Source: Psilocybe cubensis (lineage: Eukaryota). Taken from it: a stretch of 64,000 nt of DNA. Shown here in pieces: positions 49,726 through 58,600 of the stretch. The translations under genes and the position numbers were made by a program. The stretch is from positions 1,550,001 through 1,614,000 of the forward strand of contig CM039003.1 in the NCBI GenBank assembly GCA_017499595.2, given 5' to 3'. The notes under the pieces were generated by a model. The model had not been told where the DNA came from. It saw nothing but the letters and a program-made list of their open reading frames with translations, and made no database searches. Numbering within the stretch: the stretch's first letter is position 1; every line of letters begins with the position of its first letter.

Positions 49726-50293
49726 AACGAATCGCCAACAACTTGTTTTTCTCAGGGAACCAAGTTGTCAAGGCGAAAATGCCTGGAAAAAAAGAAGAAA
49801 TATAAAAGGGAGAAATAACGAAAGGAGCGTTGGCAAGTGACAGTGATTGGCCACAAGTGAGTAAGTAAGCGGCAAAGCAACTCTGGAAAACCTGACGCCG
49901 CTGACGAGACAGGGAATCGGAAGACAAAGAGAGCAACAAAACAAAGCTGATTTTCCCGCCATTGGGTCAAGGCACAATGATTCCATGATTGGATCACACA
50001 TATATGAATGCCTCCGAACAACCATCTACAATGTCTATCCTACTTATCAAAACACAAAAGCAATAACTATATTTCAACGACAACCATGGTCGGCAAACAA
50101 ATATACATACAGATCCACTGCTATCAAGACAGGAAGAAAAGAAAAAAGATAGCGAGAGTTACTGCCTATAGAGCCCAATACTTTAAACCCTTGAAAACAG
50201 TCAAAACCAAAAACCAACGAGACATGGGGGAGTAGGACAGATGGTGGGGGGAATAGTAATCTACAAACGAGAACAAGTGATTGAAATGGGCGT

Positions 50294-53200
50294 TTAGGGT
50301 ATACCAGCAGGCGCCGGGTGATTATCCATCCTCATTTTCTTTGGGGCCCGGCTGATATCGCCATGTTCCATGGGCCTTTTTAAATCAACCTCGTCGCCAA
50401 AGTGCATCTCCACATCCCGGCTATCGTGCAAATCATTTCCGGTAGATGGTGTTGGTATCATTCTCGACGAAGGAGGTGACACTGACCGAGGAGAGTCGGG
50501 CTTCGACGTTGACGAGCGACGTGATTTCTTTTGCCCAGGTCCGTTCGAATAGGCTGATTCATGCACATAATTGCAGTCGAGCTGTCGACGGGCGCAACTC
50601 GCGCACGCGGGATGTGCTCCGTCGCACTTTGTCTTGCGAGCTATAAAAAGGCATAGAAATAGACGTATTAGACTTCATCACATGCGCGCGCAGAAGAGGT
50701 ACAAAACAGGTATCAAAAGGCCTAAAAACACGCACCTCGACAGTAATTACACGCCACAACCTTTGGTCCGGAGCTGGTAGATTGCCGACCAATTTTTCCG
50801 GGGACAGTGGCTGCTCGTTTCCGTTGTGCAGCTTGAAGGTCGGAGGCAGGTCTGATGGGAGGGAGGTTCGGGGCAGACATCGGTGCAGGTGTGGGAGGTT
50901 CTGTCATAGGTAAAGTCGCGATATGGGGTACCTCGTTGTCGGGGAAATACCTGCGCGAACTTTCTCCCATGGATGCAGAGTCCACTTTGAGTCGAGAGGA
51001 GGAAGCGGCCGAAGAATCATCACGGCGCTCGCTCATGGTAGACATAGACGGTAAAGAAGGTGTGTACCCCTCATGCTGGTGTCGTCCAACATTGGAACTT
51101 CGGCGTGAAGGGGTTTGGGAGGGAATTTCAGGAGAAAGAGAAGGCTCATCTGCCTCGGCAGATCTCTCGTCTCCACTGTCGCTGCCGCTTTCGTCGCCTT
51201 TCCTCTGTCTCTGTGTCCCACGTCGTTTATTTTGGGGCATATAGTCACAAGGATTGTTACGTTTCAAACATTGGCCGCAAGTAGGACGGCCTCCGTCGCA
51301 TTTCAATTTCCTCGCTGTAGCCAGAAAGCTTCTTCAGAATGTTGTTGAGAGAGACAGAATGGAAGAAAAGCATACAGCGACAAAAGTTGCATGCAACTGT
51401 TATCTTTTTGGAACGTGGCGGCTTTACCCCTAGTAAACCAGGAACAGAAGACATGTCAGTAGATCGCCCACACATAACAGATATCGGATCTATACGTACT
51501 GGCCATAGCAGCTCTACCGGCGCTGCTGGCAGGGATAGACTCTGGAAGGTTAGTACGAGGTGGGGGTGCGCTGCGAACATCACCAGGATATCCGTCGTGT
51601 CGCTGTTGTTGTTGTTGAGGCGGTTGTTGTTGTACAGTAATAGAACGAGGATGCGCAAGAGGCTGAGGAGCAGTGTCGATAGCCAAGATAGGTCTAGATG
51701 TGTGTTGCATAGTAGGGATGTGGGATAGGTGTGAAATGTTGGACGAATGCCGAGAGGTAGGGCGCTGCAGGGTATATTCCGACCTAAATTTCTCAAACAA
51801 ATATAATCGGGTATAACGCTGTAGAGTCTATCATATCATCAAGAAAGGGTCGGGGGTAAGAAAAGTAACATCAGAGATTGAGATTTCGGATGAGTGTGAT
51901 GCTTCTTACCTCCATGTGATGAAAAATAGCGGCGCGGAGCGAGAGAAAGTCACTGTGGGCAGAATCCAGAACATCCAGGGTGCCCCATCTGTAAGAGCGG
52001 ATGAATTTGCCGCGGGGGTAGGGAGAAGGAATTGAATAGTGTGTAGACGGCGTGTATTGTTGCACCAGCTCATGTCGGGACAGCGTCCTTCTAGAAACGC
52101 CGTCACTATGAGAATACATGTCTGGAGAAATAAGAGCATAGGGTAGGCGGAGCAATGGCGGCGACGTAGGCGACGTCGGGGGCGTGCTGTTGGCTGCTGA
52201 AGCTCCGTTGGGACCGTGCCCATACCCGTTCGAAGAGTCGGGCCTATTGGCAGAGTTTGGCCGTTCGTCCTGGGGATACGGTGTACTATCCGTATCAAAT
52301 ATCCCGAAGCCAATGCCAGCGTCGGCGAGATCCCTGCGTATGGCGAGTTTGACAGCCGCCAATCGATCATTCGATAAGATATCCGCTCTGGCGATCACAG
52401 GGAGGACATTGACACGTCCTGACAGACGGCGTATGGCCGCGATGTCGGCCTGGGGGAGGGTAGGACGGGCAAGGAGAGGGTTAGTAGTCACAGGGGGCTC
52501 GAGAATTACGGGCTCATGGTCGGGCTGTGAGAAGCTGTTGGTGCGTGTTCGGGGAATGAGCGGGGCAGGAGGCCCCGGAACTGACGGCGGTACAATCTGG
52601 TCCGGGTCCAAAAAGTAGATGCAGCTGCGCATTGTGTGGGATGAGGCTGGGCGGTGAGCAGACGATGAGATGCATTGAACACGTACAGATGAACATAACG
52701 GTCACCGCTCTGCGCTTTCCATTCCTATGTAAAAGGAAAAATGGATTGTCAATAACGGCGGGGAGGCAGGGGGAAGAGTAACAAATAGGCGCCTCACATC
52801 ATCAAGACCTTCCGCGAAACGGGAATCTATATGCCGCAAGGTTTCGGTAAGGATACGGTCTGCAGCAACCTCGTCTCGAAAGTCCAGAGAAGGAGTATCG
52901 ATGAGAGTGAGCCCCAGCGGTTGATGCTGGCCCGTGCCGTCATCGAGAAGAATATCTATGGAGGCCGCCCGTATGTACGAGGTATGGCCACTGCACCCCT
53001 GGACAAACTTTGCGACCGACGCCAACTGATCCTTGGTAACCCGCTGGGAGACGACACTGGTATCGAGGATCAGACGAAGAAACGATGTTTTACCTGATCC
53101 GAGCGCAAACAGAACGGTCAGCATTGAGGACGGAACCCCGGAGTTTCATAACCACCAGGCCGTGTTGCGCGACGCTTTTGCACGATTCGCGCTCGCAAGA

Positions 53201-53462
53201 CACACCGGGGCGGAATTGGAAATTAGGAGACTGACCTCCTCGACAGCCCGCGACGAGCAGATTGAATTCTGGGCGAATATTGTCTGTTATGGGGAACGGA
53301 ATATGGGCCAGTGGCAAAGATTAGGCGTTGTGGTAGCTTACCTGGGGCTTCGTGTTTGTGAACGGACCCAGCAGTACTAGCTCCTGGATATTGACCTGGG
53401 ACGCCCTGCAGCGTTGAACGGTCGTGGTCGTCGTGGCGGATCCGGTGGTCAGAGTTGTTCAT
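50294..53462 (-). CDS. septin-like GTPase domain fused to two Zn(II)2Cys6 binuclear clusters (predicted 841 aa, 9 exons)
   Basis: Exons 53462-53342, 53283-53236, 53093-52798, 52724-52687, 52624-51910, 51827-51500, 51429-51376, 51314-50736 and 50640-50294. All introns are GT-AG and the summed 2526 nt stay in one frame. Septin motifs are followed by CNFCRSRKLKCDGGRPTCGQCLKRNNPC and CNYCRARKTKCDGAHPACASCARRQLDC. Confidence 0.78.
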
Positions 53463-54026
53463 GGAGGTGGACAACGAACGGCGGAAGGCCAGAACGGGGA
53501 AAGCAGGATTGCCCGCAAACACGCAAAGTGCAAGCGCGGTGATTTCGTCTTGATGCGAATGAACCGAATCTCGCTCTTTGCCACCGAACCAATCGGAACA
53601 AATCAAGGTCCACTCCAACTTAACATTTCCGTGTTCTTATGTCCAAATAATTATCAGGGTCTCTCTAAAAAATAAAATAAACTATCTGCTAGATACAGCA
53701 TGAAAATACAAGTAGATTTATTACGGTGAAAAGTGTCGTCCAGAACACCAAGTTTAGGGTACGAATATCGTGGGAGCGGTCGGTATGCGCCTCAAGTGCG
53801 CAAATAAGGGGCTAAGAAAAGAGTGGATAGCAACAGAATACGTAAGTGGAAGACTCCCCAGGAGGATCTGTCATTGGCGGACACCGAAAAAATGAATGTG
53901 GGGAAGCTAGAGGCACGGAATCAAAATATTGTTTTTCTGATGCAACCGACTCGAGCACAGCCAACGGGCGGCAGGGTTCGTAGACGTTGAATAAAATGTT
54001 TCCCGGCATGCTGATCCGTACCGTGA

Positions 54027-55511
54027 TTAACCCATACTTCGATGTATGTTTTCTGCATCCGTCCGATCTCCAGTGTCTGTTTCCCGTTCACGGGAAGCAT
54101 AAAGGCCCGGATGATCTTCTTTCGGGGGAGGAGGGGTCATGTACTGCGGTGACACCTCCGGAGGCTGAAAGGCAAAGTTGTCGAGCGCCATCACGGAAGT
54201 GTAGGGACGAACTTCCGGGGCGAGAGCATCCAATTCATGCTCGGGCACGGAGCTAGACGGACGGTGGGCAACATTTCTAGATGTTGACATGGCTCTTCTC
54301 GAGCGGGTTCCTTTCGGAGCTTTACCAGGACCACGGCGTCGTTGATTAGAGACATACTCGCATTGAAACTTGCGGACCGTGCAATTCCAACAGGAGGGCT
54401 TGGCACCGTTACAGCGAAGCTTTCGACCTGTCGTGTGTGTGTAAAAAAAAAAAGTCAAAAGATGTGACGGTTATTGTATTGATATGTTTCTCACCTCGGC
54501 AAAAGTTGCACGCTACGGCCGTCTTTTTGATGTTTCTAGATTTCCGAGCGCCCTCGTCAGCGGAAAGAGACTCTGCCCTGCGGCGCTTGCCTTCATGGGC
54601 TCCACCGGGGGCAGTGTCGGGGTCAGTGTCGACAGAACGTGGAATAGAACTAGACCGGTACGCAGAAGAATTCAAGTTTGGGCTCCTCAAGTATGCAGAG
54701 CTGGGGGCCGATAGAGAGAGAGAACCGACAGGGGCATAAGTATAGGCATCTTGGCGATTAAACATGGACGCGTCTTCCTGGGGCAACATGGTGAATTGCT
54801 GCTGAGCAGGGGGGAGACTCTCGAATTGATAAGATGGGTGTTGATTGATGTTATACGGTACAGCTATTTATGGAATCAGAGAGTATAACATTAAAAAAAA
54901 GTGGAATAAAAAAACATACCTGAGGGCCAATACTGGTCGGTCCTCTCGAGAAAGTTTTGTTCTGACACACGCGCAGATGGAGCTCGTCTGTCAGAATACT
55001 GTAGCTGCTGCTGCTGCTGGGCACTGTCATGATAGGGACGGCGCTCTGAGAACTGGCTCTCGGTGGGCGGCTGTCGCTCGGTCCACGGCAGCCTCTCGGG
55101 GTACGGCTCTCTTTCGGGGTACGGCAGCCTTTCGGTGGAGGACTGCCTATACGGCTCCCTGGTGGGGTAGTGATCCCTGGCCGGATAAAAGGCTCTGTCT
55201 GTGTAGTAATCCCTTTCGGAGAGCCGGTCGTGGGCCTCCGGAGGATAGAGCCTGTCTCGGCCAGGATAGTAGTCTGGATACGGGTGTGTGGCAGAGCGAG
55301 CGAGGGAAGAAGGGCCTGGCTCACCGTCAGCCCAGGTGGGAGAACGGGACTGTGGGGGATAGAGATGGGTGAAAGGGGGTGAGACGGGGTGGTCGGCGTC
55401 GTCGAGAAGGGTTGTGCGGGTAGAAGAGTCCCTTGGCTGCTGGGGCGCTGTGTAAAGGTGGGGAATGAGGCTGCTGGGAAGGGAGCTCTGGCGGAACTGG
55501 TCGCGGTCCAT
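54027..55511 (-). CDS. Zn(II)2Cys6 transcription factor-like protein
   Basis: Exons 55511-54920, 54863-54495 and 54427-54027; CNFCRGRKLRCNGAKPSCWNCTVRKFQCEY followed by RRRGPGK. The 3' end is uncertain. Confidence 0.85.
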
Positions 55512-55688: not shown

Positions 55689-58600
55689 ATGCCCAACCCT
55701 GCCCGCTTCGTCCGCGCCTTTTCCACAGCTGCGCCATGCAGGCACTCGATGCCCATCATGAACAGATACAGCAGGCTTGTCACTCAGCCCAAGGATCAGG
55801 GCGCCAGTCAGGTATGTTGACTTTGTGAAAGCTTCTCAACCTCACACCCTCCAGGCCATGCTCTATGCAACAGACGGCATCGCGTCCGACGAAGACTTTA
55901 ACAAAGCCATGGTCGGCGTAGCCAGTGTCTGGTGTGTCTCTTCTCCTTTGCATCGTCTCTCTCCAGCTGAACACACGCCAGGTACGAAGGAAACCCGTGC
56001 GTCTCGTGCTTCCTCGCGCGCGCTTTTGTCCTGATTTCCTCCAAATAGATGCAACAAACACCTTTTGGGTCTGGGCCAAGAGATTAAAGCTTCCCTTGCC
56101 CAGTCCAACTTGATTGGATACCAATTTGGCACCGTCGGTGTCAGCGATGGCATTAGCATGGGCACCAAGGGAATGTCCTACTCCCTCCAGTCCCGAGACC
56201 TCATCGCAGATCAGGTAGAAACAGCCGCAGGTGGCCATCATCTAGACGGCATGGTCGTAGTTCCTGGCTGCGACAAGAATATGCCAGGTGTCCTCATTGC
56301 CCGTCAGTCCTCCGCTCTCTCCTTATATTCCATCTTCTAAACATATACCAAATCTCCGATCCGTCCTCCCTTCCATGTTTTTCTTCCGTCACGGACACGT
56401 CAATCCATACATTCAACAACTTCCGTATCCTCAGTGGGCCGACTCAACCGTCCCGGTCTGATGGTCTATGGTGGTACTATTCGCGCAGGCTCGTGCGAAG
56501 GTGCGCCACAGCTCGACATCGTGTCTGCTTTCCAATCATACGGCAAGTATCTCCAGGACGGCAAGACTCCTGCAGCCGAAACTGAGCGCTACAATACTGT
56601 CCGACACGCCTGTCCCGGGCCTGGCGCGTGTGGAGGTGTAAGTCCTGACAGTCTTTCTTTTCCTGTTTAGTTTATACAACTGTTCATCATAGATGTACAC
56701 TGCCAATACGATGGCCTCTGCAATCGAGGCTTTGGGCATGACTCTACCGGGGTCCTCCTCTTTCCCTGCTGAATCAAAGGAGAAGCACGATGAATGTGCC
56801 TCTGTGGGACCCGTCATGTATAACCTCATCGCCAAAAACATTCTTCCAAGGCAGATCATGACCCGTTCCGCATTCGAGAACGCAATGGTGCGAACTCTGC
56901 TGTTTGTTTTTGAATCACTGCGCATCCTAATTGATTATACCTCCGTTTTCCTATCCCTTTTTGGTCTCCTTTTCGTTCTGTTTCCGTCTGGCTCTCTTTT
57001 GTCTCCTTGGCTTCCTCTGGCTCTATTTACTTCCGTGTCCGCTGATCTCGTTGATTTCCGTTATCCTGTCAATCCCAACTATGCTTGTATTTGCTTTGAA
57101 CTGCGCATATACTCATCATCACCCTCTTTCTCGGTTGATCAAAATGTCAGGTTTTGACTATGGTCCTCGGAGGTTCTACTAACGCGGTTCTCCATCTTAT
57201 CGCAATGGCTCACTCGGTCGGTATTAAACTGAGCATCGACGACTTCCAGAACGTGTCAGACCGTGTTCCCTTCCTAGCGGACATCAAGCCTAGCGGCAAG
57301 TATGTCATGGAGGATGTGTACAAACTCGGTGGTATTCCAAGTGCGTGCCATTTAATTATTATTTATACATCCTGTATCTCTCGAGAAAGATGTGTACTGA
57401 CATTGATTAACCGAATAAACCTGTTAGAGATCCTTGCGTTCCTGTTAAAGAACAAGATGATTGACGGCAACAACATGACTGTGACTGGAAAGACTCTGGG
57501 TGAGAACTTGGAAGAGTGGACTTACAAACACGGAGAACTCGATAGCACCCAAGACGTCATTCGACCTCTGGACAACCCCATGAAGGCTACCGGACACATC
57601 AGGTAAATATCTTTGCATCAGGCTAATTTTATCGCCTCTGTCGCCTTTGCCGACCCAAGTTAATGTCTCTCCCGTGTCGCCCTCCCCCTTTGTCATCACG
57701 TATGGGCCCCGCATTCTTCTCCGCTTCATGTCGCCGCGTTGTTTCCTGTGCCTCACGCATGTCTGTCCATCGGGGAGATATTCGCTTCTGTGTCGAGTTG
57801 ATCTGTTGCACGCTTCACGATGTTTCGTATTTTCAAATACCCTTTCACCATCAACCTATTCATTCATTTTTTCATCTTCCAAAAATACGGTGACTGACTA
57901 TCGCATGGTTCCCTTTCTTTTCTTTTAGGATCTTGAAAGGCAACCTTGCACCAGGTGGCGCAGTGGCCAAGATCACGGGCAAGGAAGGATTGGGCTTTGT
58001 TGGCAAAGCCCGCACATTTGACACGGAAGATGATTTTGTCAAAGCCGTCGAGTCCGGCTCAATCAAAAAAGGAGAAAAGACTGTGGTCATTCTCAGGTAT
58101 CTGGGCCCCCAGGGTGGACCAGGTGAGTTTTCTTTGTCTTCATTCCCCATTATGCCGTTATTTCTTTTTATCTCTCTCTCTTTCTCTTTGGGTCTTTCTT
58201 GGGGTTTGTCTTGTGTTTGTTTTGTCTGTTTGACGGATGTCCGGCTGAGAAGACTGAAATTATCTGTGGTGCTTCTGATTTGCGGCGTTGCTTCTTGAGC
58301 GCAAGTACAATCCCATTCATCCTTTCCTTGATGAACGTGGTTGGATCCTGCACTGGCATATGACCCTTACCATCACCAAACTGTTCTTGGGTTCCCTGTC
58401 GTAATATCTAATCTTGCGTTTTGATGCGACTCTGCACCATTGTGTCGCATTGTTTTTTTTGTTTCCTGTTTATGCGTTCCGCCCCTCTGCTCCGTGTCTC
58501 AAGGATGAGCAGTACCCTTCGACGCTTTAACGCGCTTGTTCGTGCTGTTTTACCTCGGCTCCACACACTCTCTGTTTTTCCCGTCGTTTCTTGACGATGT

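Follow-up and report, generated by a model that had tools for sequence, protein, structure and literature searches.

A Septin-Type Module and Two Zn2Cys6 Clusters Encoded by One Gene of the Bhr1 Type in Psilocybe cubensis

Introduction

This study provides evidence that a single minus-strand gene of Psilocybe cubensis encodes a divergent septin-type module joined in frame to two complete Zn2Cys6 clusters. The gene lies in a stretch of 64,000 nucleotides (GenBank assembly GCA_017499595.2, contig CM039003.1, positions 1,550,001 to 1,614,000 of the forward strand), hereafter called the window, in whose coordinates all positions are given. The septin part, the linker that follows it and both clusters are carried on one spliced molecule, and the architecture is conserved in mushroom-forming fungi, being annotated in well over 100 genomes. 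An earlier reading made from the letters of the window without database searches (the sequence-only reading) had proposed this in-frame fusion to two six-cysteine clusters, and the proposal is borne out both by the transcript and by the conservation.

The fusion architecture is already known, and its recovery from raw sequence is a rediscovery. It was published in July 2026 (Microbiol Spectr) for the protein Dicsqu464_2_3079262 of Dichomitus squalens, named Bhr1 for 'basidiomycete hemicellulose regulator' (PMC13532241). A full-text search brought up this one paper for the architecture. The published model, confirmed by complementary DNA (cDNA), has 833 aa, with three partial PF00735 matches and two C-terminal PF00172 matches; its nucleotide-binding motifs G1 and G3 are divergent, it belongs to a clade outside the core septins, and 41 cluster-bearing members, all from Agaricomycetes, were found among 150 genomes (PMC13532241). 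The bhr1 gene was chosen for its glucose-responsive transcript, and in a CRISPR mutant of bhr1 the induction of (hemi-)cellulases was lost on mannose-rich substrates (PMC13532241). The sequence-only reading had called the combination not a textbook one and had left open whether it had been described; specialists called the architecture novel in 2026, and the question of an earlier description is answered by the paper on Bhr1 (PMC13532241).

The present data show that the architecture, picked independently from sequence, is found not only in wood-rotters but also in a mushroom that lives on dung and litter. Judging from term searches of the main text of PMC13532241, three results reported here go beyond it, namely the mis-splicing of the public P. 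cubensis protein model, the kinship of the module with a non-core septin-only family, and a conserved three-gene block. The same searches of that main text gave nothing for synteny, for adjacent or neighbouring genes, for dimers or for duplication.

Results

The reading frame of the fusion gene (53462-50294, minus strand) comprises nine exons with 2526 nt in total, runs from a start ATG at 53462-53460 to a stop TAA at 50296-50294, and encodes 841 aa (Table 1). All eight introns are of the GT...AG type and 58-142 nt long. The details given in the sequence-only reading were all located as claimed: the septin-type sequence reaches ...HHME at 51910, and after an 82-nt intron the frame continues with TLQRY... 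and a Q/P-rich linker, which is disordered and has no stop codon in the gene model. The 70-nt intron at 51499-51430 (GTACGT...CTAG) then keeps the frame between the linker and the first Zn2Cys6 cluster.

Four public runs (X1, X2, X3 and X5), among five from two studies, were compared with this model. In X1, one contig of 2848 nt covers 53518 to 50028 and skips exactly the eight modelled introns. In X2, one contig of 2978 nt covers 53514 to below 50000 (106 nt more, to about 49894), again with exactly the eight modelled introns skipped. In both contigs 51499-51430 is missing, so that 51500 is joined to 51429, the junction that the earlier reading had singled out for checking. X3 and X5, DNA-like runs from the other study, carry the unspliced form and show no skips. 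X1 and X2 come from one study and their kind ('RNA?') is only guessed, none of the matching runs being recorded as RNA; their intron-free contigs were read as cDNA-like, and contigs of this sort are blind to true transcript ends, rare isoforms and expression level.

The deposited P. cubensis protein P0001, with which exon 5 is 100% identical and which is annotated as 'Septin-like protein spn3 [Psilocybe cubensis]', has 858 aa and differs from the 841-aa model at two splice sites. It continues into intron 2 (53235-53094), so that the P-loop portion encoded by exon 3 is replaced together with the helix behind it, and it omits exon 7 (51376-51429), with loss of the first two cysteines of cluster 1. 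Because the joints of the X1 and X2 contigs match the 841-aa model at both sites, this model was preferred, and the public model P0001 is mis-spliced at two sites. Domain and motif surveys that rely on P0001 would be misled concerning the P-loop and the first zinc cluster.

The septin character of the N-terminal module was evident in several searches. Exon 5 matched Pfam Septin (PF00735) with 57.8 bits (expectation value, E, 1.4e-15; cut-off 26.2), and exon 3 gave a weak match of 14.4 bits. When the Candolleomyces model P0019 was compared with PDB sequences, all of the matches (43/43) were septins, the best at E 2.3e-17, and the alignment fell into three blocks, the third of which spans the septin unique element. 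The AlphaFold model of P0019, built from a 61-row alignment, had a mean predicted local distance difference test (pLDDT) value of 69.5 and a predicted template-modelling score (pTM) of 0.67, with a confident core and disordered loops. Among the matches listed by Foldseek for this model there were septin GTPase domains only, with target template-modelling (TM) scores of 0.62-0.77.

The nucleotide-binding motifs were counted in an alignment of 121 rows. The Walker A lysine is present in 118 of 120 rows and the next residue is Thr or Ser in 120/120, the switch I threonine is found in 119/120, and the G4 aspartate and the interface tryptophan are each invariant (121/121). The G1 motif, AGxxxGK[TS], fits [AG]xxxxGK[ST]; the septin form GxxGxGK[ST] is not retained. 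G3 reads DTPS and departs from DxxG, its fourth residue being Ser in 118 rows, Ala in two and Gly in none of the 120. The S2 and S3 regions are separated by a conserved, disordered insert, which carries RxRxxS followed by a hydrophobic residue (R193 in 121/121, R195 in 120/121 and S198 in 120/121 rows), which might, speculatively, be a basophilic AGC-kinase-type site.

Like the core septins (Cdc3/10/11/12; human SEPT2/6/7/9), the module has the GTPase fold and the septin unique element, and it retains the Asp, Arg, Trp and His of the G interface (motif alignment; PMC6323724). Unlike them, it lacks the G3 glycine and a C-terminal coiled coil, has an altered G1 and large conserved inserts, and stands in a separate clade in the tree of PMC13532241.

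Both zinc clusters are spaced CX2CX6CX6CX2CX6C, which fits the Gal4-type pattern CX2CX6CX5-12CX2CX6-8C, and both were recognized by Pfam Zn_clus (E 2.1e-6 for exon 8 and 4.2e-7 for exon 9). An intron, absent from the sequence-only reading, interrupts each cluster just behind the second cysteine and the arginine next to it (51375-51315 and 50735-50641), and about 165 disordered residues separate the two clusters. In the aligned relatives, the six cysteines of cluster 1 are conserved in 117-121 of 118-121 and those of cluster 2 in 119-120 of 120-121. The clusters therefore resemble Gal4-type Zn2Cys6 factors in their canonical six-cysteine spacing and their PF00172 matches; unlike in those factors, they are C-terminal and doubled, and none of the six pieces scanned matched the fungal-specific middle homology region (PF04082) at E up to 0.1, exons 1 and 2 lying outside the scan. 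No coiled coil was evident after either cluster in the sequence as read by eye rather than by a predictor.

The combination of PF00735 and PF00172, for which a domain-architecture search had been suggested in the sequence-only reading, is present in 103 of the 120 relatives listed for the exon 5 query and in all 120 listed for a Trametes query, as a rule with one protein per species. The relatives found with the Trametes query represent Agaricales, Boletales, Polyporales, Russulales and other orders. The other 17 of the 120 exon 5 relatives are short models with PF00735 only. Four of the five such entries inspected end at the exon 5 donor or shortly past it, and unspliced gene calling is therefore suspected; the fifth has a spurious tail. 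Further, contig L037 (33,550 nt), to which one PF00735-only entry belongs, carries the clusters downstream.

The metagenome set comprised 80 related loci, which fall into 55 groups when clustered at 97% nucleotide identity. In all 40 of these groups whose flank measures at least 1.5 kb, the septin part is succeeded on the same strand by coding sequence for the zinc clusters. Orthologues that were always encoded as two genes, which the sequence-only reading had named as evidence against its proposal, are thus not what the evaluable groups contain. These data demonstrate that the fusion is far beyond chance.

On sequence comparison, the gene is almost certainly the P. cubensis orthologue of D. 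squalens Bhr1. It was filed as such because P0131, the NCBI model from D. squalens (790 aa), shows 50% identity to P0003 of Galerina, also an orthologue, in an alignment of 735 columns that includes both clusters, and because P0131 shares a tree group with the window protein. The tree contained 34 rows, 14 of them taken from the many Bhr1-type proteins, and was midpoint-rooted without a core-septin outgroup; the very long P0298, P0205, P0314 and P0265 were excluded, as were P0232 and P0275. In it, the window protein groups with Galerina (support 99), and P0131 falls within the same 15-row group as the window protein with a support of 82, or of 98 with P0237 included. P0237, from a Logan contig, is a divergent Bhr1-type protein whose septin part has the core-septin-like motifs AKAD and YPWG, and in the tree it has a basal place in the Bhr1 group (support 98). 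P0237 was also considered as a septin-only sister of the family; this was rejected, as both clusters are present with unspliced introns.

The P. cubensis protein resembles Bhr1 in its layout, with a divergent septin-like module at the N-terminus and a pair of Zn2Cys6 clusters towards the C-terminus within about 830-840 aa, in the same G1/G3 divergence, in its clade (via P0131) and in its restriction to Agaricomycetes. The two differ in that identity between Agaricales and Polyporales members is 50%, in that the D. squalens gene has a 995-nt intron (PMC13532241) against a longest intron of 142 nt here, and in that the function has been demonstrated in the white-rotting species D. squalens only; the P. 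cubensis targets may differ. PMC13532241 calls G4 'matched'; the sequence of this motif in the NCBI model from D. squalens is ARAD.

The septin module has its nearest relatives outside the core septins. An exhaustive search with exon 5 against 1.84 billion representatives gave 327 proteins at E up to 0.001, and the best 150 of the 327 were either Bhr1-type or members of a septin-only family, with no core septins among them; wherever the region is present, the sequence surrounding G4 and the Trp strand follows one signature in these 150. The septin-only family has an intact G1 (GxxGxGK[ST]) and G3 (DTPG). P0019 matched its member P0219 in two segments of 129 and 72 bits, against at most 66 bits for the solved core septins. 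Named members include proteins from Tulasnella, Serendipita, an Auriculariales isolate, Suillus, Schizophyllum, Coniophora and Vararia, and further ones from Calocera, Tremella and a Pucciniomycotina yeast, showing a spread across Basidiomycota; the Atlas listing contains related Ascomycota clusters.

The septin-only proteins are like the Bhr1 module in having inserts at the same places and three introns of the same position and phase; they are unlike it in having a long N-terminal extension, intact G1 and G3, and no DNA-binding domain. By these sequence comparisons, the Bhr1 module appears to be descended from, or sister to, this non-core family and not the core septins. The sequence-only reading, which had likened the module to the filament-forming septins, is not supported on this point, since the domain lies outside the core, lacks the G3 glycine and is closest to the septin-only family.

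As a lead, the septin-only family probably corresponds to the Group 5 (AspE-type) septins, because it has a long N-terminal extension, no coiled coil, divergent motifs and related Ascomycota clusters. This label is based on published descriptions (PMC8801916, PMC6323724). Group 5 septins are described as having a long N-terminal extension, no coiled coil and the most divergent motifs (PMC8801916, PMC6323724), and they reportedly stay out of core filaments (PMC8801916). One of them, KpAspE, reportedly dimerises across the G interface (bioRxiv 10.1101/2024.05.23.595546).

A complex was predicted between residues 40-425 of the Bhr1-type P0019 and residues 125-605 of the septin-only P0219. The score was 0.76, against 0.00 for the best of three controls, and the mark applied to such scores is attained by 51 of 78 solved complexes and by 2 of 108 mismatched pairs. 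Contact agreement between runs was at least 52%, with a partner pLDDT of at least 64. The confident predicted contacts involve, in each chain, the Trp strand and the G4 region, and these correspond to the septin G interface. Pairing of this kind is plausible for the lineage because KpAspE is reported to be a G-interface dimer (bioRxiv 10.1101/2024.05.23.595546).

Table 1. Coordinates of the fusion gene, its parts and its two neighbours in the window.
Feature	Position	Strand	Basis or remark
Bhr1-type coding region	50294..53462	-	9 exons, 841 aa, stop included; all 8 joints in X1/X2 contigs
5' untranslated part, minimum	53463..53518	-	Spliced contig ends at 53518 (X1) and 53514 (X2)
Exon 1: start codon, disordered N-terminus	53342..53462	-	Model and contigs
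Exon 2: first G-domain strand, first half of Walker A loop	53236..53283	-	Model and contigs
Exon 3: P-loop GKTS, switch I threonine, G3 DTPS (52899-52888)	52798..53093	-	Model, contigs, motif alignment
Exon 4: 38-nt mini-exon	52687..52724	-	Model and contigs; flanking introns match downstream septin gene (position, phase)
Exon 5	51910..52624	-	Pfam Septin, E 1.4e-15
Conserved insert with RxRxxS, in exon 5	52551-52534 (residues 193-198)	-	Motif counts
G4 motif ARAD, in exon 5	52392-52381	-	Motif counts
Septin unique element start, in exon 5	51993	-	Sequence
Exon 6: last septin-domain helix (to 51771), then Q/P-rich linker	51500..51827	-	Model and contigs
70-nt intron	51430..51499	-	Absent in X1/X2 contigs, present in X3/X5
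Exon 7: basic stretch, first two cysteines of cluster 1	51376..51429	-	Model and contigs
Exon 8: remainder of cluster 1, acidic/Ser-rich disordered spacer, cysteines 1 and 2 of cluster 2	50736..51314	-	Pfam Zn_clus, E 2.1e-6
Exon 9: rest of cluster 2, disordered tail, stop	50294..50640	-	Pfam Zn_clus, E 4.2e-7
Conserved basic KKMR motif, in exon 9	50341-50330	-	Motif alignment
Zn2Cys6 cluster 1, residues 529-556	51247..51391	-	Span includes intron 51375-51315
Zn2Cys6 cluster 2, residues 722-749	50573..50751	-	Span includes intron 50735-50641
3' untranslated part, minimum	50000..50293	-	X2 contig reaches 106 nt beyond, to ~49894
Neighbour: downstream septin-only gene, 7 exons, 614 aa	47516..49725	-	Homology model to P0219
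Neighbour: upstream small gene, one Zn2Cys6 cluster	~54030..55511	-	Limits approximate; introns partly modelled

Discussion

The best reading of these data is a Bhr1-type transcriptional activator whose septin-fold module would bind nucleotide and mediate pairing through the G interface. Taken as a whole, namely as a Bhr1 orthologue with one gene, one mRNA and one 841-residue protein made of a septin-fold module and the clusters, this reading is highly probable. The clusters are likely to bind DNA and the protein to activate target genes, and the transcription factor role put forward in the sequence-only reading is backed by the genetics of D. squalens Bhr1 (PMC13532241). The targets in D. squalens are (hemi-)cellulase genes, and those in P. 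cubensis may be other genes. As no coiled coil is evident, the two clusters in one chain could form a built-in pair of half-site readers.

For the septin module, we see an even balance of chances that it is a regulatory or assembly part, which would bind guanine nucleotide, probably without efficient hydrolysis, and would pair across the G interface with another septin-fold module. Its partner might be a second copy of Bhr1 or, a rather unlikely candidate at present, the septin-only protein encoded immediately downstream. The RxRxxS motif in the disordered loop is speculatively suggested as a kinase input. The kinship with the septin-only family points to G-interface dimerisation as the septin property that is used by the fusion. 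An analogy has been drawn with MalT-type bacterial proteins, in which a P-loop NTPase and a DNA-binding domain likewise share one chain (PMC13532241); their NTPase is of the STAND (signal transduction ATPases with numerous domains) class and not a septin, and their DNA-binding fold is unrelated; the comparison is an analogy only.

Several points weigh against this reading. The 'RNA?' label of X1 and X2 is a guess, and both runs derive from a single study. The orthology was assessed through P0131 (790 aa), which is not the Joint Genome Institute (JGI) protein Dicsqu464_2_3079262 (833 aa) of the paper. At the G4 lysine position, the 121 rows have Arg (96), Cys (15), Lys (9) or Thr (1), and guanine binding may therefore be altered. 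The chains used in the complex prediction were stand-ins from two organisms other than P. cubensis, the pass may echo the septin G dimers that have already been solved, and the prediction cannot separate a homodimer from a heterodimer. Whether Bhr1 itself binds promoters directly, and what its NTPase domain does, are left unresolved by its authors (PMC13532241). The P. cubensis gene, finally, is known from sequence and contigs.

The alternative that survives best, although we consider it doubtful, is that the module is a pseudo-GTPase scaffold, a fixed fold that would serve stability, constitutive dimerisation or docking, with regulation exerted through expression or phosphorylation. The absence of the G3 glycine in 120/120 rows and the replacement of the G4 lysine in 112/121 are consistent with this, as are the suggestion of a 'pseudo' P-loop NTPase for Bhr1 and the selection of the D. 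squalens gene for its glucose-responsive transcript (PMC13532241). However, the Walker A lysine with the following Thr/Ser, the switch I threonine (119/120) and the G4 aspartate (121/121) are near-invariant, which is hard to explain without nucleotide binding.

A septin-tethered or cleaved factor, in which the module would sit in septin filaments at septa or the cortex and would keep the DNA-binding half outside the nucleus until its release, coupling septation or morphogenesis to transcription, is improbable. The septin fold and the G-interface residues are retained, the module is predicted to pair with another septin-fold protein, and colony morphology of the D. squalens mutant was altered on some sugars (PMC13532241), all of which could be accommodated by tethering. 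Against it, the module stands outside the core septins both in the tree of PMC13532241 and among the best 150 of the 327 matches, Group 5 septins reportedly remain outside core filaments (PMC8801916), and no cleavage site or membrane-binding element was identified. Further, the published phenotype concerns substrate-specific expression of enzyme genes and not septation (PMC13532241). The link to septation or morphogenesis drawn in the sequence-only reading is thus without support, Bhr1 being a regulator of (hemi-)cellulase genes on mannose-rich substrates (PMC13532241).

That two adjacent genes, for a septin and a zinc-cluster factor, were wrongly joined could draw on the 17 of 120 listed relatives with PF00735 only, but it is refuted as far as the contigs show and is hardly credible in view of the single spliced contig over both halves in X1 and in X2, the linker without a stop, the clusters following on the same strand in 40/40 evaluable groups, and the PF00735-only entries themselves, four of the five inspected breaking off at the exon 5 donor or closely behind it, the fifth having a spurious tail, and L037 holding the clusters downstream.

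Genomic Neighborhood

The Bhr1-type gene is flanked on the same strand by two related genes. The downstream gene (49725-47516), modelled by homology to P0219, has seven exons encoding 614 aa and belongs to the septin-only family; the N-terminal extension of the modelled protein is long, and both G1 and G3 are intact. The upstream gene (about 55511-54030) encodes a small protein with a single Zn2Cys6 cluster near its C-terminus, and all 60 of the relatives listed for it (60/60) are unnamed or 'hypothetical'. Upstream of the fusion gene, the runs X1 and X2, both from one study, have a coverage gap at 53519-53702, which weakly hints that the small cluster gene is transcribed separately. On the other side, the X2 contig end (about 49894) lies within about 170 nt of the start codon of the downstream septin gene (49725). 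The fusion gene and the downstream septin gene may share regulatory sequence or be connected by read-through.

The order of the three genes recurs in other fungi. Of the 23 metagenome groups with at least 4 kb of flank, 17 have a septin-only gene within 4 kb downstream on the same strand, as do several shorter loci; the gene is missing at L033, L037, L051, L056, L059-61 and L067-72. The upstream cluster gene is found within 3 kb in 23 of 28 evaluable metagenome groups. Over-long gene models reflect the same order: in Panaeolus and two Tephrocybe the fusion gene continues into the septin gene, and in Amanita, Lanmaoa and one other the upstream gene continues into the fusion gene. In Vararia, the fusion and septin-only proteins have consecutive accessions, and the upstream and fusion genes have consecutive locus tags or IDs in seven species.

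Intron positions connect the genes of the block with each other. Three introns of the septin part match introns of the downstream gene in position and phase, including both that flank the mini-exon, and all three zinc clusters (two in the fusion protein, one in the upstream protein) have a phase-1 intron at the same spot, as read directly. We hypothesize that the block is a duplicated two-gene unit whose middle genes fused, which would give exactly the observed three-gene order. In the tree, the Bhr1 branch joins at an unresolved base with no outgroup, and neither an origin of the module inside the Agaricomycete septin-only clade nor a recent tandem duplication is supported or rejected by it.

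The three-gene block thus suggests an origin of the fusion and nominates the downstream septin as a concrete partner candidate. It may be carefully extended to a two-septin switch: the module without the G3 glycine, probably locked in one nucleotide state, would pair through the G interface with the catalytically intact, Group-5-like downstream septin, the nucleotide cycle or assembly state of this partner would gate the DNA-binding half, and the block would be a fused duplication kept by co-regulation. We regard this extension as unlikely, somewhat less probable than the pseudo-GTPase scaffold and more so than the tethered factor.

Elsewhere in the window, a Pfam scan of ten long open frames found ordinary genes, and the idea of a mating-type or other special locus was rejected on this basis. 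The genes around the block seem to be of the ordinary housekeeping kind; above it, a dihydroxy-acid-dehydratase-like frame was noticed by eye on the plus strand at 55760-57600. Other parts of the window encode HisG, an anthranilate-phosphoribosyltransferase-type domain, a GH20 hexosaminidase, a sedolisin pro-domain, a RIO kinase and a tetraspanin.

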